This document shows, one piece after another, positions 271 to 23,136 of a stretch of DNA of 52,064 nt. The stretch is from positions 1-52,064 of the forward strand of contig MEQL01000015.1 of NCBI GenBank assembly GCA_001770205.1, in the 5' to 3' direction. Each line of letters begins with the position of its first letter. Positions within the stretch are counted from its first letter, which is position 1. The stretch is from Bdellovibrionales bacterium RIFOXYD12_FULL_39_22. GTDB taxonomy: Bacteria; Bdellovibrionota; Bacteriovoracia; Bacteriovoracales; Bacteriovoracaceae. The notes beneath the pieces were generated by a model. That model saw nothing but the letters and a program-made list of their open reading frames with translations. It was not told the origin of the DNA and ran no database searches. A program made the position numbers and the translations under genes.

Positions 271-1665
271 ATGAGATTGCACGGGAAAATAGGCACTAGA
301 GTTTTGAAAAAATTTGAAGGTTTTTCTTTTGTTGAAATCATGGTTGCCGTCGGACTTACTGGAATGATCTCATTAGGAACAGTTAAAATTATTGACATGA
401 TGAACAGAGGGCAAAAGAATTTAACTCAGCATGTGACAACAAATAGGCTTGATTTTGAAATTATGATGACATTGATGGATAAATCAGGCTGTGAATTGAC
501 AATGAATGGAATAACGCCACCCACGGTAACTGGCGACTCGTTAACCCTTGCCGATCACGGAATAATTGCTCGTGGTGATAGATTAATTACAACTACAGAT
601 TCTGCATTGCCACAAAATGTTCATGATTTTGCACAAGGTGGGATAATGATTCACGAGAGTACCTCTATCCTCAAGGACAGGGATTCAGACTCGTTAGCGC
701 CGGGAGATGGAATTCCAAATCACTACATGTTGAATTTGATGTTTAGAAAAAGGGCCTCGTCAGTTGGCGCAGACTCGATCCCTGTAAAAATCCCGCTATG
801 GGTAATTCAGGATAATGGTGTAGATGGAACAATAACTACATGTTTTACACAGGAAGATGCCTATGTACAGGCGGCATGCGCTTCGCTTTTGGGAACATTA
901 GAATACGGTTATTGCAAGCGATTGCAAATTTTTCAAAGTGGTGTACCTGTTCCGGCAATACCACCTGCTGACGATAATTATTCTATGAGCTTGTTTGGAA
1001 ATTTTTTTGTTAATGGAGAAGGTTCTGGGGCGGGCATAATTTTTCAGGATACTTTGGATGATACTGAGATTGATATAAGAGGTGGGGATTTTTCCGATAA
1101 TAAAATTGCAATGGCCTCAGATCGTATCGCAGGGCAGTTAGTACTTAATGCCGACAATAGTTTTGATTCCACAAAGGGTTATGCAAAATTATTCCTTCTC
1201 GGGAATGAAAGTGTTGAGCTTAGAGCACCTATTTATCATTTTAAATCATTAGATGGGGGGAATACATTTTTAACTGTTACTGATGGCCCTGCCGTTTTTA
1301 ACTATGGACTTACAATAGCTGCTGGTCAATCTATTGGTTTTGCCTCCGATAAATCACAAAAAAAAGAAATTAGTCCTTTGGTCAAAGTTTTAGAAAAAAT
1401 TGAAAAAATTAGCGGGGTAAGTTTTCGCTGGAAAGACTCAAATCAAAAGGATATTGGGGTGATTGCACAAGATATTGAAAAAGTATTTCCTGAATTAGTT
1501 GCCACAAATGGTGAAGATGGAAAACTTATGGTAAAATATCCTCAGCTATCTGCAGTCTCTATTCAGGCCATAAAAGAGCTTCATAAAGAAAATAGATATC
1601 TTCTACAAGAAGTTCAAAGCTTAAAAAAATATCTTTGTGATCGAGATGGGAAGTTTTGCAAGTAG
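271..1665 (+). CDS. Type IV prepilin-like N-terminus fused to a fibre body and a C-terminal peptidase S74 intramolecular chaperone domain
   Basis: KKFEG|FSFVEIMVAVGL class III signal with E5; C-terminal SDKSQKKEI...GVSFRWK...IGVIAQDIEKVFPELV...AIKEL plus coiled coil; ATG 271 has GGAG upstream (ORF track starts at TTG 211). Confidence 0.85.
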   Translation: MRLHGKIGTRVLKKFEGFSFVEIMVAVGLTGMISLGTVKIIDMMNRGQKNLTQHVTTNRLDFEIMMTLMDKSGCELTMNGITPPTVTGDSLTLADHGIIARGDRLITTTDSALPQNVHDFAQGGIMIHESTSILKDRDSDSLAPGDGIPNHYMLNLMFRKRASSVGADSIPVKIPLWVIQDNGVDGTITTCFTQEDAYVQAACASLLGTLEYGYCKRLQIFQSGVPVPAIPPADDNYSMSLFGNFFVNGEGSGAGIIFQDTLDDTEIDIRGGDFSDNKIAMASDRIAGQLVLNADNSFDSTKGYAKLFLLGNESVELRAPIYHFKSLDGGNTFLTVTDGPAVFNYGLTIAAGQSIGFASDKSQKKEISPLVKVLEKIEKISGVSFRWKDSNQKDIGVIAQDIEKVFPELVATNGEDGKLMVKYPQLSAVSIQAIKELHKENRYLLQEVQSLKKYLCDRDGKFCK

Positions 1666-1671
1666 AGTTTG

Positions 1672-2055
1672 TTAAGTGAATAGATTCCAGCCAATGTCTG
1701 GCCCCAAATATTGAAGAGTAAAATGTTTGGTTTCATCGAGGTTGATCTCTTTTTCAACGATAATGTCGCGAACAGTTCCCATAACTTTTTGACCATTTGA
1801 TAAGATGATGGGGCCATTTCGCCATTTTGTCTTTAGCACATAAAAATGAATTACGGTGGTGATTGCTTCTGGATTAGCAGGCAAAATTATCTTTGCATCA
1901 CCTACAAGGGTATGAGTGGCCGTTTCATTATCTGTAATTTTAATCTCTTTTTTTGCAAATAAATATAACGGGGCATCTTTAATCTTTTGCCCGATAGTCG
2001 CTTTGCCTGCAATTGCGGCCGCAAAAAGAGTCGTCAAAAAACTTCTTCGCTCCAT
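1672..2055 (-). CDS. Tat-signal protein carrying one phage tail-fibre-type repeat
   Basis: MERRSFLTTLFAAA twin-arginine-type signal; IILPANP...ILSNGQKVMG...FTLQYLGPDIGW resembles the LPxxP...NGxxIxG...LxY...GW repeat of T4-like long tail fibres. Confidence 0.6.
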   Translation of the reverse strand: MERRSFLTTLFAAAIAGKATIGQKIKDAPLYLFAKKEIKITDNETATHTLVGDAKIILPANPEAITTVIHFYVLKTKWRNGPIILSNGQKVMGTVRDIIVEKEINLDETKHFTLQYLGPDIGWNLFT

Positions 2056-2145
2056 AAAGTTCCCGTTGAAATTAAATCGGATATCAATTACCCTACTAGA
2101 GTATTTGTTTGGTTTTTATCTGTCAAAATTTACCTGGAGCTATTT

Positions 2146-2703
2146 ATGGCGTACTACTTAACAACGGCAAATATCCATGTTCCTCCAGCGACTTCAACAG
2201 TGGCCACAGCTGGAACAGGAAATGGTTTAGCGGTAACGGATGGAACTAATGTACCCGCGGGTAATTTTTCAGCAAACAAGGTTTTCAATGCTGTTTGGAA
2301 TGATGTTGCAGATTTTCAATTGTTGAATGACAAATTTATTCCAGGAAAGTGCTATGTCGATCACATAGAAGGTGCACGAATTGCATCACAGCGCTGTCAA
2401 ATGGGGGTAATTGGAATTGCCTCGGATACCTTTGGATATGGTGTCGGTTCAGGGGCAAATGAGAGTGAAGTTCCTATTGCGATTGCCGGTTGGGTTCTTG
2501 CTTTTGTAGATCAAGAATACCCATGTGGAACACCACTGACATGTAATGAGAACGGAGAATTGACAGAGATGTCGTTGGAAGAGAAAAGGGATTATCCAGA
2601 AAGAATAGTCGGTATATATAAAAAACCAGAACGCAATAAAGAGTTTGGGCCAAATAAGAATAAAATCCTGGTAAATGGGCGACACTGGGTTAAGGTCAAA
2701 TAA
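2146..2703 (+). CDS. Short Thr/Ala/Gly-rich segment fused to a peptidase G2-like autoproteolytic chaperone domain (185 aa)
   Basis: GGAG then ATG 2146; ANKVFNAVWNDVADF...GVIGIASDTFGYGVG...VPIAIAGWVLAFV resembles phage tail-spike C-terminal NAVWNDYAE domains. Confidence 0.65.
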   Translation: MAYYLTTANIHVPPATSTVATAGTGNGLAVTDGTNVPAGNFSANKVFNAVWNDVADFQLLNDKFIPGKCYVDHIEGARIASQRCQMGVIGIASDTFGYGVGSGANESEVPIAIAGWVLAFVDQEYPCGTPLTCNENGELTEMSLEEKRDYPERIVGIYKKPERNKEFGPNKNKILVNGRHWVKVK

Positions 2704-3345
2704 TTAGTCTCTTTTAAAAATCAGTCGGGCCACTTCACAATAGTTAAATCCAAATATTTTGCCATCAGATTCGTTGGTAATTTTTATTCCAGATAAACTA
2801 CATGGATGCGTGTCATCTTCTTTTATCTCACCTATATATCTTCGACACAGCTTCACTTTTGTTTCAATATACTTAGAAATATCAAATCCAACATTGAAAT
2901 GATGTTCGATAAATGACCAATCGGAACTACCTGGTATTTTATATTGATAAAACTCTCGAACAGAACACTTTCTAATTGGGCGACAGGTTAAACGGAGACT
3001 TTCGCCAACCACCTGATGATCTCGATGCAAATCACTTTCGCAGGGGCCAAATACAACATCAGGCATATATGTATTAACTTCTTCTTGAAGAATTGAGACA
3101 ACTTCTCGGAAATTGTTATGAAGTGTTAAGTCTGGAATCTCAAAAATTTGATGTGGAATTTTAAGTTCCAACATATTTTCGACAAAAGCTTTTTTTCTAT
3201 GCGTTGAATCTTCTGCGCTCCTTCCGTTACACAACACAATCGCCCTTATCGTGTTCACAGTAGAATATCTGGCCAAAGATCCTCCCAACCCAAACTCAAT
3301 ATCATCTAAATGTGCACCAACCATTAAAATTTTTCTATTTTCCAT
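2704..3345 (-). CDS. PIG-L/LmbE family de-N-acetylase
   Basis: GAHLDDIE and DLHRDHQ zinc-binding motifs. Confidence 0.9.
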   Translation of the reverse strand: MENRKILMVGAHLDDIEFGLGGSLARYSTVNTIRAIVLCNGRSAEDSTHRKKAFVENMLELKIPHQIFEIPDLTLHNNFREVVSILQEEVNTYMPDVVFGPCESDLHRDHQVVGESLRLTCRPIRKCSVREFYQYKIPGSSDWSFIEHHFNVGFDISKYIETKVKLCRRYIGEIKEDDTHPCSLSGIKITNESDGKIFGFNYCEVARLIFKRD

Positions 3346-3809
3346 TCAACATTATCCCACCCAAGCCTAATAAATCTCACTCCTTTTTTCTGTATTCCTT
3401 CCAAGACATTTTTTATAAAAGTCTTTCTATCGAAAGGAGAATACATTGGAATGCCTAAGGCCTTGCATAATTGCTCATCATCATCGATTAGATGCCCTCT
3501 TCCGGCCACACTATAACACCCATTGTGGCCAGCGTTAACAAAAATAATAGATCCAAAATTTTCAGCAAATCCCTTAATATTGAATTTAATCTGTTCATAC
3601 GCCTTATATATAACAAATCCGGCCACACCATAAATGATTACTTTCTTTCCTTGGGATGCTAGTCCTGCTGCGATATTGACCATGTTAGATTCCTGAACGC
3701 CGCAGTTTATTAAATTACACTTCGTTTCAAATCCCCACATATCACAGTGAAGAAGATAAATGTCATCACACTTCTGACGACTTAAGAAATAGTGCAAGGT
3801 CTTTCTCAT
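3324..3809 (-). CDS. Transketolase-like pyrimidine-binding subunit (short)
   Basis: INCGVQESNMVNIAAGLASQGKK, KAYEQIK motifs; lacks the C-terminal domain. Confidence 0.85.
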   Translation of the reverse strand: MRKTLHYFLSRQKCDDIYLLHCDMWGFETKCNLINCGVQESNMVNIAAGLASQGKKVIIYGVAGFVIYKAYEQIKFNIKGFAENFGSIIFVNAGHNGCYSVAGRGHLIDDDEQLCKALGIPMYSPFDRKTFIKNVLEGIQKKGVRFIRLGWDNVEWKIEKF

Positions 3810-4485
3810 TCAATTTCCTATAATGCCATTTTTTTGGATTTAACTCCATTTCAGGAACACCAAATCCCTTTATTGTTTTAAAAAAAACCGCTGTGGGGCG
3901 ACATCTTTTTAATTTATTCATTACTGTTATGATTTGCTTATGATCATATCCATCAACAAAATGGAAATCCCAGCTATAATTGATAAGTAATTGCGTTACT
4001 GGCCCGACGTCTAGTATTTCACTGGTTTTTCCAGTTACCTGAGAGTTGTTATAATCGACTGTAAGAAAAATATTTTTTAACTGGTGATGACCAATAAACC
4101 CGATGGCCTCCAACGTATTACCCATTTGTAAAGAGGCATCAGATATGTTTACCCAGACATTTTTGGTAGTTGTTAAAGCAATTCCACTTGCAACTCCCAG
4201 AGCATTTCCCATTGTCTCTTCGCTGAAAGCGACAAACGGAACTTCATCATGCTTCACGCCACTAGATAATTTCTCAATGTTGGCAATAAGCTTTAGTCTT
4301 TCCCAAACTAAGTAATAGGCCTGCGCCCCAAATGGTTTTCCAATACAAATAATGTCATCTAATGTAATAAACTTATCTGTAAAAAGGATATCAATGTAGG
4401 ACAGCATAGATAATGCCGATGGTATGTGAGACAGTCCATTTTTATAAGAGTAGCAGAGTAGTTGTTTTATGAGGTCTCTGTTCAT
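3766..4485 (-). CDS. Transketolase-like thiamine-diphosphate-binding subunit
   Basis: SHIPSALS, MGNALGVASGIA, divergent ThDP motif SDASLQMG...DYNN, TIKGFGV...KWH. Confidence 0.85.
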   Translation of the reverse strand: MNRDLIKQLLCYSYKNGLSHIPSALSMLSYIDILFTDKFITLDDIICIGKPFGAQAYYLVWERLKLIANIEKLSSGVKHDEVPFVAFSEETMGNALGVASGIALTTTKNVWVNISDASLQMGNTLEAIGFIGHHQLKNIFLTVDYNNSQVTGKTSEILDVGPVTQLLINYSWDFHFVDGYDHKQIITVMNKLKRCRPTAVFFKTIKGFGVPEMELNPKKWHYRKLNEKDLALFLKSSEV

Positions 4486-4630
4486 TAGTGCGTTTCTTGT
4501 ATTTTATTGCAAATGAAAATTTATTCCTCAAGCTGGATAAGTGATTATTAATTACACTACATGAAATTTTGACAAAACAACAGCTGGCAGATACACTTTT
4601 TTTGTATGGGCCAAATATCAGAGGTGCTCC

Positions 4631-5398
4631 ATGGAACATAACAATCTATTAGATGAACTGAAGAAAATCTACAAAATGCACTCGTATCAATGGTCAGATA
4701 AAATCGACCTCGAACATTTAACCGGATGCTACTTCCACCATCCGGTTAACGGTATAAATATATTCGTACGTAGTTTGCATCGAAGAGATTTTTTTTCGGA
4801 GGATGAAATCGATATTCTTGATGCGCTAAGACGTTATCCAGTTGGCCCTAGTCAGAAAACAATTGTTGATTTGTATCTGTCAAAATATATTGAGCGGCCA
4901 GAATTGCTTGATAAAGAGATGGATTTTTTTTTACATAAATATAAAAAATATTTCCCCAAGTTATATATCCACAAGGAATTTATAATCGTTGAAGATTACC
5001 GCTTAAAAAGCAGTGACTGGATAACTTTTACTCCAGAGATGGCCAAAAAACATTCTTCGCAATACTTTGATTTTTTAAATAACTATTACAGCGATACAAA
5101 GCAAGACTCTCATGTTCTTCGGATACATAGTATTTACTTTTCAAATTTATTATTTAATAAAAAAACCAAAAGGTTTGTTTTTACAAACCTTGGCTATTTT
5201 GAACCAGGGCCATTCACTTATCCCTACCTATTAATTGATGATAGAGATATTCATAATATTCGATATTACAATTTTGCGCCAGGAGTAGAGTATCCCTTTA
5301 AACCGTATGATGCCTGCAATTTAAGGTTAAAATTTCAATTGATGCGGAAAAAGATTAATTTAGTACAAGAGGCCATCGGTAAACATTTGCCCGAATGA
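4631..5398 (+). CDS. Hypothetical protein, possible degenerate kinase-like fold
   Basis: FPKLY...IIVEDY and IHSIYFSNLLF...FVFTNLG follow kinase subdomain spacing but lack both catalytic Asp residues. Confidence 0.45.
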   Translation: MEHNNLLDELKKIYKMHSYQWSDKIDLEHLTGCYFHHPVNGINIFVRSLHRRDFFSEDEIDILDALRRYPVGPSQKTIVDLYLSKYIERPELLDKEMDFFLHKYKKYFPKLYIHKEFIIVEDYRLKSSDWITFTPEMAKKHSSQYFDFLNNYYSDTKQDSHVLRIHSIYFSNLLFNKKTKRFVFTNLGYFEPGPFTYPYLLIDDRDIHNIRYYNFAPGVEYPFKPYDACNLRLKFQLMRKKINLVQEAIGKHLPE

Positions 5399-5435
5399 TT
5401 GAGAACTTACTGAATTTAAAATTTGAATACTTTTT

Positions 5436-6044
5436 ATGCAAGATAAAGTTAAATTAAGTATTTTAATATTAACACATAATAGGCCTATATTGTTTCAAAG
5501 GTGTATTGGTTCGGCACTAGAAAACAGGCCAAGTGGTGTAGAAATTATTGTCAATAATGATTCACAAGACATTAAAGAAATTCCAGGCGCTAAATATTTC
5601 TATGAAAAACACGATGACTTATCTCTGGTTTATAAGTTTTTATTTGATAATGCAAAAGGTGAATTTGTATATTTTCTCGAAGATGACGACTATCTCATGA
5701 AGAACTTCTATAAGGTAGTTATGGGTATTAAGCAAAACACTATCTTTCGATATTTTCCTGAAAAAAACATTAAGCTGTACTACGAGTACTTCAAAGATGA
5801 AGGAAAGTTTAAAACTGAATTTCAGCTGGGCCAAATTATATTTAAAAAAGAAACGGTAAAGAATTTTCCAATAGGAAATAGATTAGATAATGATTTTTTG
5901 CTTTATCTTGAAGCGAATGCAAATGAAAAATTTATAAAAAACGAAGCCTGTCTTTACGTTCAAACTCTCGATGGCAAAGATAATATTAGTTATCCATTGT
6001 TAAACAGAGATGTTCGATTTGTTGGAGATGGATGTGGAATATAA
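5436..6044 (+). CDS. Glycosyltransferase family 2
   Basis: LSILILTHNRP, EIIVNNDS, AKGEFVYFLEDDDY (DxD). Confidence 0.9.
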   Translation: MQDKVKLSILILTHNRPILFQRCIGSALENRPSGVEIIVNNDSQDIKEIPGAKYFYEKHDDLSLVYKFLFDNAKGEFVYFLEDDDYLMKNFYKVVMGIKQNTIFRYFPEKNIKLYYEYFKDEGKFKTEFQLGQIIFKKETVKNFPIGNRLDNDFLLYLEANANEKFIKNEACLYVQTLDGKDNISYPLLNRDVRFVGDGCGI

Positions 6045-6972
6045 TAGGCAATATGATAAATCACACAAAATACAAAGGCTCTATGTTCACTGGGATGTAA
6101 GTACTCAATGTAACTTTAACTGCTCATACTGTTATTCGCTTGCAGATTATTATTCTGAGTGGAACAGAATTGATTCTTGGGCCAGGCAGAAGTTAGTTAT
6201 CAGAAATATTTCAAAATCGCACCTGCCTGTTTTTTTAGGCCTTCTTGGTGGAGAGCCAACAATTCATCCTAACTACGAGGAGCTGGTTCGATTATGCCAT
6301 GAAGCTATTTCGACTCAAAAAGATGGAAGGTTATATATTACGACCAACGGTTCTCGGCCAACGAATTGGTTTGAAAGGCACAGATTCTATGAGAATACGT
6401 ATTTTTTATGGAGTGCACATTTTGAATATGAAAAATATTATGGTTTAAACTTCGAGTTAATGATCAACAATATTAAAATTATGAAGGAAAAAGGATTTCG
6501 AAATAAGGTTAATGTCATGCTTATTCCAGATAAGCAGCAATGGCCCAAAATTCATAAATTAGTCGATGAATTGGAAAAACTGGGGGTTGAGATTCATCCA
6601 CATTTTCTCTATGAGAAAGGTAATGTACACAGATTGCATGAATATTCCGATGAGTTTTATGATGAATTTGCAAGGTTTCAAAATTATCCGGGGCAATTTA
6701 TTTTTGAGGGGCCAACTGATAACCATGCCTACAACGACTATGACATATTTCATAATAAGCATACTTGTTTTACTGGATGGGATTGTTGGAATAATAATTA
6801 TGAAATTAACTATAAAGGCAAGGTGACTCGTTTTTGTTTTAAAGAAAATAGTGATTTAATAACTAATTTTAATTTTTTTAAGAATATTAAAGAAGTGCTT
6901 CCCTTGCAATGCCCCCACGAGACATGCAACTGTGATGGATTGCTGAAAATATATAAGGAAAAAATTGTTTAA
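6010..6972 (+). CDS. Radical SAM protein with C-terminal Cys motif
   Basis: CNFNCSYC, LLGGEPT, TTNGS, terminal CPHETCNC; true start may be GTG 6034 (GGAG 6 nt upstream). Confidence 0.92.
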   Translation: MFDLLEMDVEYNRQYDKSHKIQRLYVHWDVSTQCNFNCSYCYSLADYYSEWNRIDSWARQKLVIRNISKSHLPVFLGLLGGEPTIHPNYEELVRLCHEAISTQKDGRLYITTNGSRPTNWFERHRFYENTYFLWSAHFEYEKYYGLNFELMINNIKIMKEKGFRNKVNVMLIPDKQQWPKIHKLVDELEKLGVEIHPHFLYEKGNVHRLHEYSDEFYDEFARFQNYPGQFIFEGPTDNHAYNDYDIFHNKHTCFTGWDCWNNNYEINYKGKVTRFCFKENSDLITNFNFFKNIKEVLPLQCPHETCNCDGLLKIYKEKIV

Positions 6973-7858: not shown

Positions 7859-7876
7859 AAACAACACAAGTGATAT

Positions 7877-8698
7877 TTGGGGGCCAGAGAAGTAATGAAT
7901 TTGGTTATTGCTGGAGCGTTTAGCAAATTTAAGGAGCTATCAGTATTTTTTCTTGAAAACAAGATTTACAAAAGAAATAAAATTACTGTTTATGATGGTA
8001 TTAATGAGTGTTCATGGAATGGCGGTAGAATTAATAGAAAAGTCTACTGGAGTCAATCGCAAATAGACTTCTATTATAATAGGGATATTGGGATAGGGCT
8101 GACTTTCACCAATCATGAGATCAATATTAATGATAAAGTTGGACTTTCACTGCTGGATAAATTTCATATTTCCGGGAATAAAATTATATTAATAAATGAT
8201 CATCTTAGAGAATTTATACGAAAAAATTATCCGTATTATAGACTAACCTACAGTGTTACTGGCGTAGGCCATATTCCCATCCCCCTTAATGACGAAGCCC
8301 TGGACATATACAAAGATCTAGAGGCGAAGTACGATTTAATTGTGCCCAGAATGGAACACGTCTTTGATGTTAGATTCAAGGAGCTGGATCAGTCCAAATA
8401 CGAGATAATGCTTAATGATACGTGCATATATAATTGTCCTCACTATACTGAGCATTTTATGGCCATTGCTACACAAAACTTGCTAAGACGCAACTATAAA
8501 GGCCATGAAGAGATTGAAGAGTGTTGGATTGATGGATATGACTTCAAGAAAAGCAAAAATGGAAAACATGGAATGGATTTATGCCTGGAACAAATCAGGG
8601 TATTACAAAAACAAGGGATAAACAGTTTTAAGCTTTCTGGTAGAGAATTAAATTCAGAAGAGTTTGTTAATGAGCTGAGGTATTATGCAAGATGGTAA
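7877..8698 (+). CDS. Peptidase U32-like putative Fe-S protein
   Basis: EIMLNDTCIYNCP...H...ECW...GINSFKLSGR pattern; likely start ATG 7895. Confidence 0.6.
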   Translation: MGAREVMNLVIAGAFSKFKELSVFFLENKIYKRNKITVYDGINECSWNGGRINRKVYWSQSQIDFYYNRDIGIGLTFTNHEININDKVGLSLLDKFHISGNKIILINDHLREFIRKNYPYYRLTYSVTGVGHIPIPLNDEALDIYKDLEAKYDLIVPRMEHVFDVRFKELDQSKYEIMLNDTCIYNCPHYTEHFMAIATQNLLRRNYKGHEEIEECWIDGYDFKKSKNGKHGMDLCLEQIRVLQKQGINSFKLSGRELNSEEFVNELRYYARW

Positions 8699-14718: not shown

Positions 14719-14727
14719 AGTCTGCCC

Positions 14728-16437: not shown

Positions 16438-16448
16438 TTTTAATCAAT

Positions 16449-17042
16449 CTATAGAGAGTACTTTTTCTTTATTTCATCAATGGTGTGCACGCGATAGTTT
16501 TTATAAGTGTAAATTTCATTTTTTAGTGACAGGCAATTGATAGTTTCTTCTATAAAGTCGTGTATATCAATAAACTGAACGAGTTTTTGCATGTCGTGTT
16601 TGGGGACTAAATTATCTCTGATTTTTCTCATTAACCCCTTTTTCCTTCCGCCTCCATAAACCCTGGGAATTCTCAAAATTAGGTAATTGTCATATGTGTC
16701 TTGAATATAATGTTCCATGGCAAGCTTATATGCTCCATAATTATTTTCAACAAAAGTAGCGGCCATGGAACTTGCGAAGACAAATTTTGCCTTGTTAGTT
16801 TTGGCCACTTCTAAGGCGTTAATAGTTCCATTAATCATGGTGGTGGCCGTTTTGGATGTGTTCTTAAAGTCAAGCTCATCGCTGGGCCCAGCAAAATGCA
16901 TTACTATTTGCAAGTTATTATAATTTTTCTTCAATCTGATATCTCCATATCCTTTTATTACATTGCCAATCAAAGAGGGGGCCAGCGCACTCATTAGAAA
17001 ACCGCTTTCTCCCGTGATCAAAATATTGGATGATGGTTCCAA
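16449..17042 (-). CDS. Short NAD-dependent epimerase/dehydratase
   Basis: ITGESGFL, FVFASS, YGAYK, LRIPRVYG. Confidence 0.8.
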   Translation of the reverse strand: MEPSSNILITGESGFLMSALAPSLIGNVIKGYGDIRLKKNYNNLQIVMHFAGPSDELDFKNTSKTATTMINGTINALEVAKTNKAKFVFASSMAATFVENNYGAYKLAMEHYIQDTYDNYLILRIPRVYGGGRKKGLMRKIRDNLVPKHDMQKLVQFIDIHDFIEETINCLSLKNEIYTYKNYRVHTIDEIKKKYSL

Positions 17043-17133
17043 GGTTCTATGATTCCTATGGCCTAGGCCTCTATGTTAAAAAATGAAAAAAACTTTATCT
17101 TATGATACACCAAGAATATGATATTAAGTATAT

Positions 17134-18042
17134 ATGTCAACAATTTTGCGTCTTGATAAAATTACATACGATCTCTGGTTGAGTTATTCTTGGAGCGGTA
17201 ATAACCAGGGCATATGTGGGCACACCTTTGAGGTAATTGATTATTACTTATTATTAAAGAAGTATTTTAGGGTTGGAATTCTTTTGGCGGAAGATATTGA
17301 TTGGCCAACGTTCAAGCAGGCAATTACTAGCAAATACGATATATCGCTTCTAGAGCTTGAAGAGATTCAAGCTGATACTGTATTTTTCAATCGTCCGAAG
17401 CTCGTTACTGGTAATAATATCCTTTTTACTGATGGGGGGGTTACTTCTCTTAAAAATAAGACATTACTTTTTGATAATATTTTTCATTTTAGTTGTGGAG
17501 ATTTAACAATTAAAAATAATAAATCTGCAAAAACCTTTATACTACAGGATGAAAGAATTTATGGTAGATGCTTAAATAGTATTGATTATAAGAAAAAGAT
17601 ATACTTTTCGAGGTATAAAAAAATTATATCCGCAGAAAATAATATTTTGCTTTACGGTACTAAAAACTGTCGGAATATATCGCTTGAACTTTATTACGAA
17701 ATACTAAATCAATATCACGGAAACTTTATTTGTCTAACCAACGAATCAAACCGCTTCGAAGGACTCCCTGAAAGATTTAGATTTTTAAAAATGCCAGTCG
17801 ATAATCTGTTTGAAATGTTTACAACCTATATTTATACTCCAATAGAAAGAAAGTTTGATTGTAGCCCGCGTTTAATCGCAGAATGTAAGTTTTATGGTAA
17901 GAATGTGATATATCATAAAATAGACTATTGGGATGAAGATCGTGGTCTGTACTACAGAAAGTGGGATATCGATAATGATTTTGATTCAATTTGTCTTAAC
18001 GAAAATGATGAAATTATAGATGTTTTAAAAAAAATAATTTAA
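17134..18042 (+). CDS. Hypothetical protein, possibly glycosyltransferase-like (family of 30508 and 31321)
   Basis: GICGHTFEVIDYY, KIYFSRYKKI, DCSPRLIAECKFYGK align with the two downstream genes. Confidence 0.65.
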   Translation: MSTILRLDKITYDLWLSYSWSGNNQGICGHTFEVIDYYLLLKKYFRVGILLAEDIDWPTFKQAITSKYDISLLELEEIQADTVFFNRPKLVTGNNILFTDGGVTSLKNKTLLFDNIFHFSCGDLTIKNNKSAKTFILQDERIYGRCLNSIDYKKKIYFSRYKKIISAENNILLYGTKNCRNISLELYYEILNQYHGNFICLTNESNRFEGLPERFRFLKMPVDNLFEMFTTYIYTPIERKFDCSPRLIAECKFYGKNVIYHKIDYWDEDRGLYYRKWDIDNDFDSICLNENDEIIDVLKKII

Positions 18043-18065
18043 CAAACAAATCGGTATTGTGCCAT

Positions 18066-19055
18066 TTAATAATATCGATAGTGATTGAAGTCGAAGAAAC
18101 ATTTGTCATATGTACAGGTAATCGATTTCATATTTTGCAAGAAGTCCAGGCACTCTTTTTTTGAAAATATGTTATGTTCCGCCTTCTGTGTTTCATCAAA
18201 AATTTGATTGAAACAGCGATAGCAATCTCCATTAGAGTCGATAACAATTCTTTCTTTGCCCACATCACAAAGCATGCCGTTAAAACTATTTTGACGATTT
18301 TTCCATAGATATGCGGAGGAGACATAGCTGTGGGTGCCATCACAATAGTTGACCCTTAATCTGTCAATAAAGGAAAAGTCATTTTTTGATAGATTAAGAG
18401 CTTCCGGGCAATTATAGAATTTATCAATATCTTCATATGGCCGAGGAGAGTTTTCTTTAACAGAACCACACAATAGAGGTAAAAGCTCGGTCTTAACTTT
18501 TGGAAAAATTTTCCGCAATATTTTTAGATTTTTAATTATGTCTGTTCGATAATCGTCCTGATACATCACGGCAATTTGGTCTAGCATTTTATATCTATTA
18601 GCGATGACGCAATTATTGAAAAAATCTTCAAAATCGCATTCTGTGTAATGATAAGAGGTAAGGAAAAAAACAGGCCGTGTTTTTCTATGGCCATTAATTC
18701 TGTCACAAAAGAATTGAAATTTTTCTTTCTTTACGGAGAGATTTGTTTGAATTTCTAAAATGCTGTTTCTCTCCAAAGCATCCAAAATACCTTCAACGGC
18801 ATATAGAAAATCAGGGTGAATAGTTGGTTCTCCTCCATATAGAAAAAAACGAATATCTCTATTTAATGCTTTTATTAAATTTTGCAGTCCTTTAATTTCG
18901 AACTGGTCATCTTTTCTGTCATTGTTGTGCATGTCGGTACAGTACCAACAATTGTAGTTACATTTTGAAGTTAGGCGATAATCTACGCAAAAGAGGTCAC
19001 GCTCTTCCGATCCAAAAGAAATCATATTTTTTATTGGCCTGTTTTCTTTAGCCAT
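18066..19055 (-). CDS. Radical SAM protein with C-terminal Cys motif
   Basis: CNYNCWYC, YGGEPTIHP, QTNLS, SYH, CDVG...GDCYRC...CTYDKC. Confidence 0.92.
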   Translation of the reverse strand: MAKENRPIKNMISFGSEERDLFCVDYRLTSKCNYNCWYCTDMHNNDRKDDQFEIKGLQNLIKALNRDIRFFLYGGEPTIHPDFLYAVEGILDALERNSILEIQTNLSVKKEKFQFFCDRINGHRKTRPVFFLTSYHYTECDFEDFFNNCVIANRYKMLDQIAVMYQDDYRTDIIKNLKILRKIFPKVKTELLPLLCGSVKENSPRPYEDIDKFYNCPEALNLSKNDFSFIDRLRVNYCDGTHSYVSSAYLWKNRQNSFNGMLCDVGKERIVIDSNGDCYRCFNQIFDETQKAEHNIFSKKECLDFLQNMKSITCTYDKCFFDFNHYRYY

Positions 19056-19983
19056 CTAGTATGTGCCTTTCCAAGTGGCCTTGGTAGTTTTCGCTGCTTT
19101 CCCTAAATCTGCGCCAATAATTTGGATCACTGTCCGGTGTGTTGTAGTCCACAAAATACCCCATCCACTGAGCTACATGTCTGTCGGCGGGATATTCTTC
19201 ATGCCTTGCGATTTTAAATCTTACTAGGCCCATATCTAAAAACTCTTGCAGTCGTTCTTTTGTGTACCAGTAGTCAAAGTTCTCGACTCCTAAATGGCAT
19301 TGCTTAAGGCATGTTTTTTGAAAAATATGATCATAAAGTTTTCCAAAGGGCGTTACTTTATTTAGCATGCTCAGATACCGGTACATTTGTCCGGCAAGTT
19401 TGCAATATAAGTAACAGTCATTATCGACAACAAGTTCTAGTCTCGATACATCTAAATTTTTGTGTAATTTTTCAAACAGAGGTGGTTCAAGAAGTTCTTT
19501 GGGAATTACAACTATGTTGTATTCGTCTAATTTTTTTTTATAGTAATCCCAAAATTTTTCACCTTTAAGGGCCCAGAGTGTTTCATCTGCATAAGAGGCC
19601 GTAATGGAATAGGAGGTTTCATAATCGGGATAATGAATCTTAATATGACTTCTTAAACTTTCATTACACAAAATAATTCTATTCCCTTTTCTGTAGAATC
19701 GCTCTAGCACTTCATTTCCCAAGGGGTCGTTGAGAGATATTTGGCGATTTGTTAGAGGTATGCTTATGTTTATATTTCTTTCGTAAAAATTTTCAAGGCC
19801 TTCATATTTCATCTTTTCTTTAGTAACAAACCTGCCCCCTCCCCAGGTACACATGCTAATACCATCGTAGACATTAACTTCCCCGTACTTAATTGGGAGA
19901 TTGTCAAAAACTTTTAAGAAAGGTTCTCGTAGTTGGAGTCCGCGGCCAATCTCCCATTTTATTTTTAAATTCCTGTCAGACAA
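19048..19983 (-). CDS. Peptidase U32-like putative Fe-S protein (paralog of 7877-8698)
   Basis: VYDGISMCTWGGGR vs VYDGINECSWNGGR; ELVVDNDCYLYC; RFKIAR. Confidence 0.6.
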   Translation of the reverse strand: MSDRNLKIKWEIGRGLQLREPFLKVFDNLPIKYGEVNVYDGISMCTWGGGRFVTKEKMKYEGLENFYERNINISIPLTNRQISLNDPLGNEVLERFYRKGNRIILCNESLRSHIKIHYPDYETSYSITASYADETLWALKGEKFWDYYKKKLDEYNIVVIPKELLEPPLFEKLHKNLDVSRLELVVDNDCYLYCKLAGQMYRYLSMLNKVTPFGKLYDHIFQKTCLKQCHLGVENFDYWYTKERLQEFLDMGLVRFKIARHEEYPADRHVAQWMGYFVDYNTPDSDPNYWRRFRESSENYQGHLERHILDG

Positions 19984-20045
19984 TTAATAATTCCTTTTAT
20001 TGATTCTTGCCCATAAGCTCAGGCACTGTTTCTAACTTATGTAGT

Positions 20046-20879
20046 CTATATTTTATTCAAATCATAATGCTTATCCATAAAAATTTTATCATCATACACT
20101 CTGGCCAGTCTGTAATAAATCAATTTGAGAAGTTTAATCTTTTCCTTACTGTAATTAAGAAAATTAAATAGTAGAAGTTCATCTCTTATTCTTTTGCTTG
20201 AATCACTTTCATACCCAGGGCCAAAATTGGGAAAATCAATAACGATTGAATCTAAATCACACATAACAATTTTGTCGCCATTAACAAGTAAATTCGCGGG
20301 CCTAATATCGATACAGGAGAGACCCTCTTTAATTGTTTCGTTGCCACTATATTTTTCAAGAATGAGCTCTGCCACGGCCTGTTCATCACTATTAAAATAT
20401 TCTAGCTCAAGCAATTTTTTTAGAGGTATTTCATCAAAATCGTTAATTATGGAATTCATCTGAATTAGCATTTTAACAAAATTTCTAATAAAACTGCAGT
20501 TGTCAAAATCTTCCAAGGTACTCTCCCTATAATCGGAATACCATTTAAAAATTAAACAACTTTCTAGATTATGCTCTAATTTTATAAAAAAATTAAAATG
20601 ATTCATGCAGGTGAAATAATTCTCGTAATAAAGATTTTTTGAGAGAGGGCCCCCACCAAGCGTTAAGATATTTTTAATATAACTTTTAGGAACAACTTTG
20701 TATTTTTCTCCATTTTTGTTAAACACAAATTTTCCAAGCTCAAATTTTTTTGAAGTATCTATATCTTTGAGCGTTATATTTAAATCAGTGAGTCTATTTA
20801 TTTCTTCTAAATAGTTGCCAGCACTTTGAAGTGCTTTTATATATTTTATATCCATCCTGTTGTTCATAGAAAATGCCAA
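20046..20879 (-). CDS. Protein-kinase-like/phosphotransferase fold protein
   Basis: CIDIRPANLLV...IVMCDLDS (catalytic DxxxxN and DxD). Confidence 0.65.
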   Translation of the reverse strand: MAFSMNNRMDIKYIKALQSAGNYLEEINRLTDLNITLKDIDTSKKFELGKFVFNKNGEKYKVVPKSYIKNILTLGGGPLSKNLYYENYFTCMNHFNFFIKLEHNLESCLIFKWYSDYRESTLEDFDNCSFIRNFVKMLIQMNSIINDFDEIPLKKLLELEYFNSDEQAVAELILEKYSGNETIKEGLSCIDIRPANLLVNGDKIVMCDLDSIVIDFPNFGPGYESDSSKRIRDELLLFNFLNYSKEKIKLLKLIYYRLARVYDDKIFMDKHYDLNKI

Positions 20880-20885
20880 ATGAGG

Positions 20886-21914
20886 TTAGTAGTTTCTTAT
20901 ACTTGATTTTTCTTCATGCAATCTTTTCGCTTGTTTGCATATCAACTCACAATTTTCATTACAAACAGGAATTTTGTGTTTAACAAGGCGGTCCCAAAAA
21001 TCCTCATAATGATTATTAAGTATTGTCATTATGTCGTAATGATAGATATTTATTTTATCCAGATCTTTTGAAAATGAGTAAGGCTCAGAAACATACTCAC
21101 CGGCCAGGCAGCAGGGAGAAACATATCCAAAGGCATCAATGAATGCACCTTGAGTATCCAATGCCTCGCACTCAATTGTAAATTTCTTTCTTTTGCCAAG
21201 GGCCTTCACCAGCCTACTTTCAAGATTATTATCAAGGCTAAACTCGTCAGTCCTTTTTTTTCTTCTATCGCTACCTTCTGAAACAAATAAGTCCCATGGC
21301 TCGTGTGCTACAAAGCGGGTAAATCCGTTATGCTGGCCAAGTTTTATTGCCTTAGAGAGGTGACAAACATTGTATCCAAAAGTAATAAATTTCCATACTG
21401 TTTCGCAGCTTCCTGCTTTTAAAGACGCATGGTTATTTAAAACTGTATTGAAGTTGCCATTTTTTCTATATCTAGAGTATGTTTCTTGATCTATACCATC
21501 CAACGCAAAGACAACGGTGTCACTTTTGGTGAGAATGCTTCCAAGATCACGCCACCACGTCTCTGGATGATTATTGCCGTTGGTCTCAATTTCGATTGCA
21601 ATTTCTCTCGATTTTAAAAATTTTATTATCTCAAGAAAATCAGGATGAAGGGTTGGCTCTCCCTGTATTCCACATAGTAATATAAACCGAATTGGCAGCG
21701 AAGATATCAATCTAAAAATAATCTCACTATTTAGAGAATGCCCGTATGGCCTTTTTGATGTGATTTCTTGAAAGCTTTGAAATACATGTGGAGCATTTCT
21801 TGAACATGATGGGCAAGCAAGCGAACAATTCTTTGTTAGTTCAATATGAAGATTTTTAATATCCCCGTATTTCACAATACTCAATCCATTTGTAGAAGTT
21901 TGTTTTGGCCTCAC
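20886..21914 (-). CDS. Radical SAM protein with Twitch/SPASM domain
   Basis: CSLACPSCSR, CGIQGEP, ETNG, FALDG, C...GYVSPCC...CNENC. Confidence 0.92.
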   Translation of the reverse strand: MRPKQTSTNGLSIVKYGDIKNLHIELTKNCSLACPSCSRNAPHVFQSFQEITSKRPYGHSLNSEIIFRLISSLPIRFILLCGIQGEPTLHPDFLEIIKFLKSREIAIEIETNGNNHPETWWRDLGSILTKSDTVVFALDGIDQETYSRYRKNGNFNTVLNNHASLKAGSCETVWKFITFGYNVCHLSKAIKLGQHNGFTRFVAHEPWDLFVSEGSDRRKKRTDEFSLDNNLESRLVKALGKRKKFTIECEALDTQGAFIDAFGYVSPCCLAGEYVSEPYSFSKDLDKINIYHYDIMTILNNHYEDFWDRLVKHKIPVCNENCELICKQAKRLHEEKSSIRNY

Positions 21915-22062
21915 TCTTTGTCAATTTTGCTTAAAGAAACCCCAGGTGTCAATGGAACCATTTGATGTCGTGGTTTACAATAGCAGAGATACATTTTACA
22001 ATTAATGGCCACAATAATTGCGATGGGCAATTAATATAATGGCCAATAATGCCAGGAAAGTA

Positions 22063-22959
22063 ATGCAAAATTTTAACTCCAGTACCCAATTCGATTTGGT
22101 TGGTAATGATAGTGAAGCATTAGATATTAATTGGGCGCTAACAAATTATTGTAACTACGACTGTAGTTACTGCTACAATAAAACATTAATGAGGCGTACT
22201 CCCAATAAGAATGCCGAATACAAAGTCATACTTAAAAGATTGAAAATGTGTCAGGTTTGTTTTGATATTTTACTAGACGGAGGAGAGCCGACGAAGCATC
22301 CCAATTTACAATTCATTCTAGAGGAACTCGAGAAAATCGATAACTGTAAACAGATTGAGGTTCATACAAATTTCACCGAGTCTATCGATTATTACTATAA
22401 CTTAAGAAATATAACAAAGTTGAATATAAAAGCATCATATCATCCTGAATATCATTATAATTTCATAGAAAAATTAAAAATGGCAATAGCGGAAAAGAAA
22501 AATAATTTTATGGTGTCAGTAAATCTGAGTTCAGATAAAAAATTTTGGAATAAAACCGAAGAAGTTATTATATTCTGTCAAACACATGCTGTCGGTTACG
22601 AGCTAAACTATTTGCATGATACAGAAAATGTTAAAATTGGTTACACGGAGCAGTTTTTCAAAATCTTCGATCAATATATAACAAATAGGGACGGGGCCAT
22701 TGTGCATGTTATTGACAATAAGATTTATAATTTTACCGAATCAAAAATTTATCAATTGGGTTTGACATACAAGGGGATGAGTTGTTTTCCAAGAATGTAC
22801 AGAATAGAAAGTAATGGGGAAATTATAAATGGCTGTAACGGTATAAAACTTCCCCTTGTTATAAAAAAAGAGCACGTTAACCAAGCATACATTTGCCCTC
22901 ATGAAATTTGTAGTTGTAGCGAGATGCTCTTTTTTAAGCGCACCAAGAAATATCAATAA
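22063..22959 (+). CDS. Radical SAM protein (paralog of 6965-7858)
   Basis: CNYDCSYC, GGEPT, long identical stretches (RLKMCQV, GMSC, PRMYRIES); start chosen by alignment with the paralog. Confidence 0.92.
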   Translation: MQNFNSSTQFDLVGNDSEALDINWALTNYCNYDCSYCYNKTLMRRTPNKNAEYKVILKRLKMCQVCFDILLDGGEPTKHPNLQFILEELEKIDNCKQIEVHTNFTESIDYYYNLRNITKLNIKASYHPEYHYNFIEKLKMAIAEKKNNFMVSVNLSSDKKFWNKTEEVIIFCQTHAVGYELNYLHDTENVKIGYTEQFFKIFDQYITNRDGAIVHVIDNKIYNFTESKIYQLGLTYKGMSCFPRMYRIESNGEIINGCNGIKLPLVIKKEHVNQAYICPHEICSCSEMLFFKRTKKYQ

Positions 22960-23136
22960 GTTTAAGGACATTAACGGGGGCGCACAACAGTGATTTGTAT
23001 CTTGGACTGATGGCCACATGTCGCAAACTAGGCATCAGTTCTGGTGAATTATTAAAAGATCGATTTTATCATATTGATAAGATTCCAGTACTTGCGGAAG
23101 TTATACTGGCAGCGCCATAGCTTTTTGAGCAATTAC
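22947..23136 (+). mobile_element. IS66-family remnant (transposase C-terminus plus right end)
   Basis: Frame ending TAG 23120 reads SLRTLTGAHNSDLYLGLMATCRKLGISSGELLKDR...IPVLAEVI, like IS66 C-termini (RSxxG...D.FL.L..TCRKLGIS); followed by TTTGAGCAATTAC (GTAA-type terminal repeat). Confidence 0.7.

Follow-up and report, generated by a model that had tools for sequence, protein, structure and literature searches.

The window, that is, the whole 52-kb stretch of DNA analyzed here, holds a block of ~20 kb (2704-22959) made up of radical SAM (rSAM) and sugar enzymes that are elsewhere seen in tailed phages. All 26 open reading frames (ORFs) of this cassette were open, and the island contained no broken ORF. 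Two short contigs from MAGs, here called L005 and L006, carry the same cassette as a compact operon. An earlier note on this DNA had listed nine rSAM genes, a CxC-repeat protein, two deacetylases, a GT2 glycosyltransferase, two epimerases, and a split transketolase, and this observed gene content was largely confirmed. The note had also seen no capsid, terminase, portal, or integrase gene, and Pfam, PHROG, and other family searches likewise found none of these families across the 52 kb. We searched the island borders for an integrase, a tRNA gene, and a direct repeat and found none, and Pfam and NCBIfam identified no oligosaccharyltransferase, flippase, exporter, protease, lipid-carrier enzyme or transferase, polymerase, or initiating transferase in the island.

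Pfam PF04055 matched eight ORFs, and a ninth rSAM gene (13714-14727, minus strand; PF04055 E = 2.7e-15; phrog_27238 E = 2.7e-83) brings the total to nine intact genes, all nine with CX3CX2C near the N terminus and C-terminal Cys clusters. The ninth gene is open from stop to stop over 337 amino acids (aa) without an ATG, GTG, or TTG, and the sequence suggests that it probably starts at an in-frame CTG at 14718, 6 nt after GAGGG. It was 48% identical to CP220 gp163, with its C-terminal 160 aa only as the query. This gene is part of a nine-gene run on the minus strand (15360-8742) in which the gaps between genes range from -38 to +74 nt. The run begins (14728-15360) and ends (8742-9344) with phrog_25260/CP220 gp015-like genes whose products are 40% identical. 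Within it lie an rSAM/SPASM gene (12309-13127; Pfam rSAM; SPASM 23.9 bits, cutoff 21.5; CP220 gp087 E = 9.5e-11) and two PapB-like rSAM genes, one at 11224-12234 (NCBIfam PapB 94.8 bits, QhpD-type 70 bits; CP220 gp023 E = 5e-30) and one with a SPASM-like C-terminal Cys cluster at 9851-11017 (NCBIfam PapB 97 bits; CP220 gp136 E = 3e-42), all 15 of whose phage matches were to Campylobacter phages. Between these two is an 84-aa ORF (10980-11234, minus strand) with no Pfam or PHROG family. The best curated families for the two PapB-like enzymes were SPASM maturases that crosslink peptides or proteins (PapB, QhpD-type, CXXX-repeat, and SCIFF), with scores of 97 and 95 bits that are both below the 340-bit cutoff for PapB, a ranthipeptide maturase; Pfam SPASM was above its cutoff in one of the three enzymes showing SPASM.

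The other rSAM genes lie to either side of this operon. On the left, both on the plus strand, are 6010-6972 (Pfam; CX3CX2C at residue 34; 55% identical to its L006 homologue) and 6965-7858 (Pfam; phrog_13987 E = 4e-26). The latter is a paralogue, at 56% identity, of the gene at the right-hand island end (22018-22959, plus strand; Pfam; Cys motifs). The remaining two, on the minus strand, are 18066-19055 (Pfam; Cys motifs) and 20886-21914, which has a SPASM-like end (Pfam; phrog_21308 E = 2.5e-39; CP220 gp080/083/084 E ~ 1e-24).

The two deacetylases are a PIG-L/LmbE-type de-N-acetylase (2704-3345, minus strand; PF02585 E = 5.8e-12; CP220 gp157 E = 5e-4; homologue in L006) and a CE4-type polysaccharide deacetylase (13109-13717, minus strand; PF01522; phrog_26430 E = 3.6e-24; CP220 gp156 E = 5.8e-25). 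The split transketolase is a mini transketolase on the minus strand, with a ThDP-binding half of 239 aa (3766-4485; Transketolase_N E = 3.5e-10, 39.8 bits, cutoff 22; CP220 gp072 E = 4.7e-14) and a pyrimidine-binding half, TK-C, of 161 aa (3324-3809; phrog_23258 E = 1.9e-35), which scored 20 bits for Transket_pyr, under the Pfam cutoff of 27. All 14 phage records matching TK-C are Campylobacter phages (43 to 50% identity), and of its 366 relatives, the 120 listed are 65 to 75% identical. The GT2 family glycosyltransferase has 202 aa (5436-6044, plus strand; PF00535 E = 4.1e-7; L006 homologue, 44% identity). The epimerases are a UXS/ArnA-like SDR nucleotide-sugar epimerase/dehydratase (15499-16437, plus strand; Pfam Epimerase E = 5.9e-43; NCBIfam; CP220 gp158) and a short SDR of 197 aa (16449-17042, minus strand; Pfam; phrog_25469; CP220 gp012), which is not a truncation because it keeps this size in both L005 and L006. 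A possible GT-B-like glycosyltransferase (17134-18042, plus strand; phrog_24441 E = 1.8e-25) gave a predicted structure (pLDDT 63, pTM 0.68) whose PDB matches at E <= 0.001 are GT-B glycosyltransferases, MshA and BshA among them, at TM 0.30 to 0.46; its top BFVD matches are Campylobacter phage CP20 proteins.

Two further pairs named in the earlier note fared less well. The pair called U32-like (7877-8698, plus strand; 19048-19983, minus strand) are paralogues (32% identity, E = 2e-25) with no Pfam match even at E < 5, and the U32-like fold of the first is a structural lead from the Atlas, where a cluster automatically named Peptidase U32 matched at TM 0.83; our own predicted model was of poor quality (pLDDT 48). 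This protein has an L006 homologue at 47% identity, and its nearest Atlas clusters are mostly viral (59 to 83% in the top feature clusters). The name "kinase-like" found no backing for a 255-aa protein (4631-5398, plus strand), which has no Pfam or PHROG family, or for a 277-aa protein (20046-20879, minus strand), which has a D-x4-N/DLD motif by eye only, no Pfam match, and no usable match in a PDB sequence search; paralogy between the two was not detectable (E = 0.29).

Three genes that the earlier note had assigned to tail fiber parts sit 5' of the enzyme block in window coordinates and do not follow it. The assignment is solid for the gene at 271-1665 (plus strand; Pfam Peptidase_S74 E = 8.9e-15), which encodes a fiber-type protein of 464 aa from the ATG at 271 (the ORF list has an alternative TTG start at 211) with a C-terminal S74 domain and, as read from the sequence, a prepilin-type leader (KKFEG/FSFVEIMVAV). 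An SDKSQK motif stands at residue 359, and the C-terminal region matched 36 PHROG families at E <= 0.001, mostly tail fiber or baseplate among the 25 shown. A prepilin-like N terminus and S74 are also combined in the three closest relatives and in protein P0128; by sequence, pilin-S74 fusions are a small family. A terminator-like hairpin with a T-run (55-100, plus strand), also a reading of the sequence, ends the upstream gene and sets the pilin-S74 gene apart from the left side, and a promoter-like site lies at 166-193, 5' of the gene. The pilin-S74 gene is its own transcription unit 3' of the terminator, convergent or divergent relative to its neighbors. The second gene encodes a protein of 127 aa (1672-2055, minus strand) with a Tat-like twin-arginine N terminus (MERRSFL), no Pfam match, and phrog_35687 as its only family (E = 0.0066); both export signals claimed in the earlier note, prepilin and Tat, were found, and a fiber origin of this protein was unsupported. 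The third, a stand-alone protein of 185 aa (2146-2703, plus strand) with no Pfam match, may resemble Peptidase_G2, an autoproteolytic chaperone domain found in phage appendages, a lead from the Atlas (feature score 0.95; three top clusters with recorded taxa 100% viral; PF11962 in 45 to 63% of members). The left end of the window carries genes with bacterial export signals. Type IV pilins and other prepilin-leader proteins are expected to fold outside the cytoplasm, away from rSAM enzymes and nucleotide-sugar transferases, which are cytoplasmic. The three genes are best read as separately transcribed fiber-type neighbors and not as direct substrates.

Inside the minus-strand operon, 12 nt downstream of the SPASM-type rSAM gene 9851-11017, lies the CxC-repeat gene (9386-9838, minus strand), whose product of 150 aa (C terminus CVCNSDCGCNQVCGCHNDCGCNYG) is our proposed substrate. 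The search of 1.84 billion representatives found 61 family members at E <= 0.001, query included, and the family is rare. We call its eight-Cys block, with the pattern C-x-C-N-S-D...C-x-C-H-N-D...C-G-C-N-Y, invariant; the alignment shows no variation at C127, C129, C133, N136, C139, C145, C147, and Y149 and next to none at D132 and C141. The S74 cleavage motif (SD...K) stands directly after the Cys block in 25 of 49 aligned members, and a Pfam-detectable S74 domain is present in 9 of the 49 and in 9 of the 16 longer relatives. Because its relatives carry this motif or domain after the Cys block, the CxC protein of the window looks, by its sequence, like a fiber-type protein; it itself lacks both an S74 domain and a signal peptide. 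The family profile found no match in CP220, L005, or L006. In tblastn, the CxC protein and its relative P0367 had no phage match, and relative P0363 matched phages through its S74 part only.

In our preferred explanation, a tentative one that falls somewhat short of an even chance, the cassette acts on the CxC protein that it encodes, crosslinking it and perhaps adding an unusual amino sugar. Module 1 would be the operon at 15360-8742, with the CxC protein and the three SPASM-like rSAM enzymes encoded directly upstream, and gene adjacency, the sole link between protein and enzymes, suggests the invariant Cys block as their target. The likeliest chemistry would be Cys-to-Asp/Asn thioether crosslinks, as formed by QhpD and PapB in their own substrates, giving a stapled needle-like tip that is possibly metal binding. 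Module 2 would be two arms (2704-8698 and 15499-22959) that together make an unusual sugar, either an amino sugar or one with a longer carbon chain, with the UXS/ArnA-like SDR, the short SDR, the GT-B-like transferase and PIG-L pair, the CE4 deacetylase, the mini transketolase, the GT2, and six more rSAM enzymes as its parts, and this sugar may decorate the same CxC protein. The product might be exported and could have a role in predation. The new point is a 150-aa CxC protein as a fiber-type candidate substrate within the cassette. The earlier interpretation, a domesticated phage fiber-tailoring system that builds a surface adhesin, is partly supported: its fiber link gains support through the CxC family, and the pilin-S74 gene as the target is not supported.

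The earlier note had taken the pilin-S74 protein (271-1665) as the target, so that the island would crosslink or glycosylate it into a modified surface adhesin for prey recognition. Only 1 kb separates this gene from the nearest gene of the cassette, pilin-S74 fusions form a small family, the host is a Bacteriovoracales predator, and Bdellovibrio uses S74-terminated fibers on its surface (PMC10769870). However, we consider this target improbable, given a gene that is transcribed separately, follows a terminator, and converges on its next neighbor, a protein with a handful of Cys only and no repeat, a prepilin leader that implies folding and S74 trimerization outside the cytoplasm with the enzymes inside, and an island with no oligosaccharyltransferase, flippase, exporter, or lipid-carrier transferase. 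Moreover, CP220 has no match to the pilin-S74 protein, and no fiber, S74, pilin, or CxC gene was seen on the short contigs L005 and L006. These contigs carry module 2 genes without module 1, and independence of the two modules is therefore possible. Their gene content also favors another explanation: that what the enzymes make is free, lipid-linked, or nucleotide-linked and unrelated to fibers, with the CxC protein as a separate RiPP precursor or a metal or Fe-S carrier for the nine rSAM enzymes. Such a product could be a sugar of an unusual kind, a pseudo-oligosaccharide, or a small molecule resembling a cofactor. GT-B and PIG-L pairs recur in mycothiol, bacillithiol, and aminoglycoside pathways, in keeping with MshA and BshA among the fold matches, and the additional genes of L005, L006, and CP220 (see below) point the same way. 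Yet neither an exporter or flippase nor a polymerase or initiating transferase was identified in the island, the CxC gene is inside the operon and not beside it, and the S74 cleavage motif in half of the CxC family is not a RiPP-precursor or Fe-S-carrier feature; we regard a non-fiber product as unlikely, though far from negligible.

Two other explanations concern the origin of the island. Its phage-type relatives, the lack of a recognizable export route for its products, and an AGA share of 0.45 of Arg codons, versus 0.22 in the flank, would fit a decaying prophage or phage-derived remnant without present function. We give this little credence, as the ORFs are open with catalytic motifs intact, the genes agree in size with their L005 and L006 counterparts, the borders show neither an integrase or tRNA gene nor a direct repeat, and the composition is ameliorated to the host. 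That host is, by sequence, a Bdellovibrio-like predator of the Bacteriovoracales (all nine SufB matches with organism names are Bacteriovoracales/Bdellovibrionota). Tetranucleotide correlations between island and host flank (r = 0.80 to 0.91) were as high as those between flanks (0.79 to 0.90), compared with 0.12 to 0.34 for CP220 and near zero for L006, and GC3 was alike (0.318 in the island, 0.334 in the housekeeping flank). An assembly chimera of phage and bacterium, which the earlier note had raised, is therefore very improbable, the more so with bacterial export signals on the left-end genes, even though the cassette relatives are mostly viral and those in genome collections are confined to short MAG contigs whose phyla are unrelated. 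Domestication, judged by composition, is plausible, and the block is best read as a phage-type tailoring cassette that a Bacteriovoracales predator carries on its chromosome.

The likeness to CP220-like Campylobacter phages named in the earlier note is, at the sequence level, real and specific: of 29 ORFs, 19 have a CP220 match at E < 1e-3, 12 of them at E <= 1e-9. L006 shares 15 of the 29 and L005 11, in one-direction operons matching the same PHROG families. Each system has its own extras, which are genes for UDP-glucose dehydrogenase, amidinotransferase, and cytidylyltransferase in CP220 and further glycosyl- and methyltransferases and an SDR in L005 and L006. CP220 also encodes a Cys-repeat protein, gp140, with (CDCNYCT)x6, to which the CxC protein is weakly similar (pairwise E = 0.001 over 62 aa); its gene adjoins the CP220 TK-C gene and lies ~2 kb from the CP220 orthologue of the rSAM gene at 9851.

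The stretch from 211 to 22959 contains 28 ORFs, and the cassette proper (2704-22959) falls into two modules: a minus-strand operon (15360-8742), which includes the gene for a 150-aa cysteine-repeat protein (the CxC protein; 9386-9838, minus strand), and a pair of sugar arms on either side of it (2704-8698 and 15499-22959). The earlier note had counted nine radical SAM (rSAM) genes, and this count held. Eight were confirmed by Pfam, and the ninth lies at 13714-14727 on the minus strand; scores against the superfamily model PF04055 were above the Pfam cutoff (32 to 57 bits; cutoff, 29.5), and each of the nine has CX3CX2C as well as C-terminal Cys clusters. The ninth gene was first listed as a 168-aa fragment only because its frame has no ATG, GTG, or TTG. 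The frame is open for 337 aa and matches PF04055 (E = 2.7e-15) and phrog_27238 (E = 2.7e-83). The upstream gene's stop codon overlaps a GAGGG, and six bases beyond this GAGGG comes an in-frame CTG (14718-14716), an arrangement that suggests a translationally coupled CTG start. For two of the rSAM genes, 9851-11017 and 11224-12234, the best curated family was the PapB-family ranthipeptide maturase NF047865, but their scores (97.1 and 94.8 bits, respectively) were far from the curated cutoff of 340 and place them outside that family. The SPASM model PF13186 (cutoff, 21.5 bits) gave 23.9 for 12309-13127, 20.6 for 20886-21914, and 18.0 for 9851-11017, three genes that have C-terminal Cys clusters.

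Most of the other predicted enzyme activities were likewise recovered, namely, the two deacetylases (PIG-L and CE4), the GT2 glycosyltransferase, the two SDR epimerases (one UXS/ArnA-like, one short), and the split transketolase, together with the CxC protein itself. The two-gene transketolase is, on its domain content, a transketolase-like mini enzyme: the N domain passed in Pfam (39.8 versus a cutoff of 22), the Pyr domain was below its cutoff (20 versus 27), the C-terminal domain was absent, and the two halves, 400 aa in total, scored 72.9 bits against the 488 that NCBIfam sets for transketolase. Two pairs did not keep their names. The "U32-like" pair (7877-8698 and 19048-19983) had no match to Pfam PF01136 even at E < 5, and neither member of the "kinase-like" pair (4631-5398 and 20046-20879) matched Pfam; a PDB sequence search with 20046-20879 alone gave an unrelated protein as its best match (E = 1.7). 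A structural match of the U32-like protein in the Atlas (TM 0.83) to a cluster automatically named Peptidase U32 is a lead only. Its Atlas neighbors were 59 to 83% viral, and its model, built from a three-row alignment, had a pLDDT of 48, too poor for a fold search. Another lead is 17134-18042, possibly a GT-B-like glycosyltransferase; its model was mediocre, its PDB matches at E ≤ 0.001 were GT-B glycosyltransferases, and its best viral matches were Campylobacter phage proteins. The two arms mirror each other about the central operon, which is bracketed by a gp015-like pair. Three paralogue pairs in this arrangement (6965-7858/22018-22959, 56% identity; 7877-8698/19048-19983, 32%; 8742-9344/14728-15360, 40%) suggest an old internal duplication or module insertion.

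The CxC protein belongs to a rare family. Searched exhaustively, 1.84 billion representatives yielded 61 proteins at E ≤ 0.001, query included, with lengths of 150 to 290 aa. Among the 49 aligned members, 14 start with M-x-C-x-G (typically MACSG), and members share a near-invariant Cys in a C-x-G-H-R-like motif, two I-x-A-x-x-i-x-x-L-R motifs, and the invariant block C-x-C-N-S-D-C-x-C-N-x-V-C-x-C-H-N-D-C-G-C-N-Y. In 25 of the 49, SD...K, the catalytic motif of the S74 chaperone, follows directly after this block, with a long tail in 9 and a stub of 12 to 13 aa in 16; Pfam S74 was found in 9 of the 49 aligned members and in 9 of the 16 longer relatives. Nineteen of the 49 stop no more than two residues past the block, at the site that S74 would cleave. 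The window protein, which has no S74 domain of its own, is among these. The position of SD...K or S74 right after the Cys block in its relatives marks the CxC protein as a putative fiber-type protein. The stub, in four relatives (P0364, P0367, P0369, and P0372) and 12 others, typically reads SDxRLKxEIxY[C/L/I]; it is the very start of the S74 domain and too short for a chaperone.

The CxC gene lies 12 nt downstream of the rSAM gene 9851-11017; among curated families, that enzyme is closest to SPASM maturases that crosslink Cys, at scores far below the cutoffs. With respect to what defines a RiPP cluster, a maturase-like rSAM gene beside a Cys-rich C terminus is present; the precursor has 150 aa and a family that carries S74, and no leader protease or exporter was found in the island with Pfam and NCBIfam. 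A profile of the CxC family, searched against the PDB, found a weak match to the S74 part only (3GUD, E = 0.27) and no solved relative of the Cys block. Homotrimer prediction with three copies and the 49-member alignment scored 0.01 against a mark of 0.42; the partner fold is itself uncertain, and the result weighs neither way. Six-frame ORFs from the window and from all 62 loci, searched with the family profile, contained no match besides the window's own protein. Neither this protein nor its relative P0367 had a tblastn match among 50,697 phage records, and another relative, P0363, had S74-only matches in the same set (41 Brucella, 2 Rhizobium, and 1 Microcystis records). Our literature search found no paper describing the CxC-block-then-S74 family.

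To the left of the cassette, the gene at 271-1665 follows a terminator hairpin (55-100) and is preceded by a promoter-like site and a Shine-Dalgarno sequence of its own. Its product starts with a canonical prepilin-type leader (G/FSFVE and a hydrophobic helix; full motif, KKFEG/FSFVEIMVAVGLTG) and ends in an S74 domain (Peptidase_S74, 55 bits; cutoff, 22) with the SDxxxK motif as SDKSQK at residue 359. Pfam N_methyl was not reported, and the NCBIfam prepilin-peptidase-dependent model gave 19 bits against a cutoff of 120. The prepilin-like N terminus and S74 are shared by its three closest relatives (P0123 to P0125) and by P0128, and two Cys near the C-terminal end are found in the window protein and in three of these four (none in P0124); the remaining matches cover the S74 part only or 17 to 55% of the query. 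Prepilin-leader/S74 fusions thus occur in other genomes as well and are a small family, one that was not found in our literature searches on S74 and pilin. The next ORF, 1672-2055, has a twin-arginine N terminus and no recognizable family, and 2146-2703 has a likeness, seen in Atlas features alone, to the autoproteolytic chaperone domain Peptidase_G2. Because each of the three genes runs convergently or divergently relative to its neighbors, cassette included, none is cotranscribed with the cassette. The earlier note had made the pilin-S74 protein the target of the cassette. This was not supported: because the gene is on a separate transcript, its product should fold outside the cytoplasm, and the island has no machinery for glycosylation in the periplasm, the pilin-S74 gene is more probably a neighbor of the cassette than its target.

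The pilin-S74 protein shares with the Bdellovibrio MAT fibers (PMC10769870) a predatory lineage and an S74 end with the SDxxxK motif. In contrast, MAT proteins, as described in the accessible text of that paper, have about 1,000 aa, and the window protein has 464 aa and a prepilin-type leader. The MAT family is defined by a signal peptide followed by a conserved beta-rich N-terminal domain of about 130 aa, and a prepilin-type leader in place of a Sec signal peptide would argue against membership.

The window is bacterial chromosome, and to the right of 25 kb it encodes two two-component systems, an ammonium transporter, sufEBCDS, MGMT, an MFS transporter, Maf, MgsA, and tmRNA. SufB was 75 to 78% identical to its best relatives, and all nine rows that named an organism were Bacteriovoracales, Halobacteriovoraceae, Bacteriovorax, or Bdellovibrionota. 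These relatives bear out the view of the host as a Bdellovibrio-like predator. Tetranucleotide correlations between island and flank (0.80 to 0.91) matched those between flank and flank (0.79 to 0.90), and GC3 was similar (0.318 versus 0.334); codon choice differed in some cases only, e.g., AGA. By comparison, the island correlated with CP220, a Campylobacter phage, at 0.12 to 0.34. A phage/host chimera at the island borders was one of the possibilities that would have undone the earlier note; the likeness in composition makes either an assembly chimera or a recent arrival of the island appear unlikely.

Several features to the right of the island are worth recording. Directly adjacent, 23236-24981 (plus strand) encodes 581 aa with a signal-peptide-like N terminus and low-complexity, M/G/S/N-rich sequence, including a 27-nt tandem repeat at 24673-24796 (4.6 copies, SMIDYSKLS); it matches no family. 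The two adjacent two-component systems follow at 25031-28866 (plus strand), an OmpR-type regulator with a HAMP kinase and then a HisKA_3 kinase with a LuxR-type regulator. The tmRNA gene (48914-49282, plus strand; tag peptide ESYDYAMAA), at 48.9 kb, is the sole RNA gene found in the window; an Rfam search of the island gave no riboswitch or other RNA. A listed ORF at 48807-49304 (minus strand) overlaps the tmRNA gene and is probably spurious. Near it, 49586-50976 (plus strand) encodes a small HTH protein and then a DUF6036 nucleotidyltransferase, which may be a toxin-antitoxin-like pair.

The link to CP220-type phages named in the earlier note was confirmed: when 29 ORFs were searched by local tblastn against the complete CP220 genome, 19 matched at E < 1e-3 and 12 at E ≤ 1e-9, the latter being both transketolase halves, CE4, both SDRs, the GT-B-like protein, one of the two gp015-like proteins, and five rSAM proteins; PIG-L matched weakly (E = 5e-4). 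There was no CP220 match for the U32-like pair, 4631-5398, 20046-20879, or the CxC family proper. Identities between the island and its phage homologues ranged from 22 to 50%. The comparison group is the group II Campylobacter myoviruses (Firehammervirus: CP220, CPt10, CP21, and IBB_35). Whereas CP220 has these genes dispersed over 177 kb, amid structural and replication genes, the window has them in one 20-kb block without a phage structural gene. Among the 50,697 phage records, the pyrimidine-binding transketolase half (3324-3809) had 14 matches and rSAM 9851-11017 had 15, all in group II Campylobacter phages; rSAM 20886-21914 matched three Campylobacter phage records and Pelagibacter phage Mosig. 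Like the cassette, CP220 has a Cys-repeat protein, gp140, encoded beside its own copy of this transketolase half, but gp140 resembles the CxC protein weakly (pairwise E = 0.001) and is missed by the CxC family profile. CP220 also encodes gp032 (24206-24574 of its sequence L003) and gp166 (38106-38528 of L004), small CxxCxx-repeat proteins (e.g., CKNCINCSNCKNCFDCEDC); this phage, which has 11 rSAM genes, carries Cys-repeat proteins of two kinds. The role of these 11 proteins has been unexplained since 2010, as far as the accessible text of PMC2853527 goes. In the portions of PMC2853527, PMC3322345, and PMC12398825 that are available, the functions of the rSAM and carbohydrate genes are unassigned in these phages too, and the last of these, a 2025 genome paper, merely lists the rSAM genes. 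Our literature searches found nothing on a phage gene set of rSAM, transketolase, deacetylase, and epimerase, nothing relevant on rSAM thioether chemistry in bacteriophage tail fibers, and no paper linking an intramolecular chaperone, rSAM, and a cysteine-rich protein.

The same transketolase half had 366 relatives; the 120 listed were 65 to 75% identical and nearly all from metagenomes. A scan of 185,579 species genomes (the window's own genome not among them) with its alignment gave 58 loci. Only two of these carried the cassette, both on short MAG contigs, L005 (NZIV01000084.1) and L006 (NYZO01000048.1); the remaining 56 had ordinary split-transketolase pairs at most. L006 and L005 have 15 and 11 of the 29 ORFs in common with the island, respectively, at 27 to 55% identity and in the same PHROG families, with the genes tightly packed in one direction. 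The one-direction run of 23 genes on L006 contains seven rSAM genes, three Pfam glycosyltransferases, and two methyltransferases and no structural or fiber gene; relative to the island, L006 has extra glycosyl- and methyltransferases and an SDR. The composition of both contigs is unrelated to that of the window (tetranucleotide correlation of the island with L006, about 0).

We weighed several accounts of the cassette. A prophage found no support: nowhere in the 52-kb window is there a gene for integrase, terminase, portal, capsid, or tail, and within it the island has no tRNA gene and no border repeat longer than 12 nt. Prokaryotic viperin NF038283 gave 28 to 57 bits where 180 is needed, and a defense system was rejected because PADLOC returned only generic rSAM-core matches to pVip, mostly partial and centered on the N-terminal core. 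Firehammervirus DNA carries a deazaguanine base, and a role in DNA modification was rejected because the island has no DNA-handling or deazaguanine-pathway gene. In the main rival account, the sugar module would yield a product unconnected with fibers. This account stays alive because L005 and L006 show the sugar module alone; unlike the island, their sequence has no CxC protein, PapB-like rSAM, gp015-like gene, or fiber gene. In our reading, the cassette is a phage-type tailoring kit, and its likeliest substrate would be its own CxC protein, which the sugar module might also decorate. A broader proposal, which we think rather unlikely, is that CxC-needle proteins are a new class of fiber tip, stapled by SPASM-type rSAM enzymes and capped with an unusual sugar, and that the kit is common to uncultured tailed phages, Campylobacter Firehammerviruses, and a bacterial predator.

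If true, this CxC-needle proposal would explain the 11 to 12 rSAM genes in those phages, and phages and predatory bacteria would share a chemistry that hardens or tunes structures used to attack Gram-negative cells. The island packs the phage gene set and a candidate substrate into one operon-like block, so that the role of these genes becomes testable by expression in another host. Further, it brings out a rare protein family in which a CxC block is followed by S74, as well as prepilin-leader/S74 fusions as a fiber architecture that a word search of PMC10769870 did not find, the word "pilin" being absent from the text searched. Were the chemistry confirmed, protein-scale rSAM crosslinking, possibly with glycosylation, would join the ways of building receptor-binding proteins.

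Among known systems, the best curated matches for 9851-11017 and 11224-12234 are SPASM maturases (PapB/ranthipeptides, QhpD/QhpC, SCIFF, and CXXX-repeat). The island resembles SPASM thioether systems in that a Cys-rich candidate target is encoded beside the enzyme and Asp/Asn are conserved in the Cys block. It differs in that the enzyme scores far below every curated cutoff, leader protease and exporter are absent from the island, and there is coupling to a sugar pathway; moreover, in place of a short leader-core peptide, the candidate target here belongs to a family of 150 to 250 aa, often with S74 at the end. QhpD offers a precedent, since its substrate is an entire small protein subunit. 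A second point of comparison is T4 gp37, whose HxH iron needle is a metal-stapled phage fiber tip. The ligand there is His rather than Cys, and the CxC protein is known from sequence alone, but, as in such tips, the CxC family has a short, evenly spaced two-ligand motif (CxC every six residues) at the far end of a fiber-type chain, immediately ahead of the site where the chaperone would be cleaved off.
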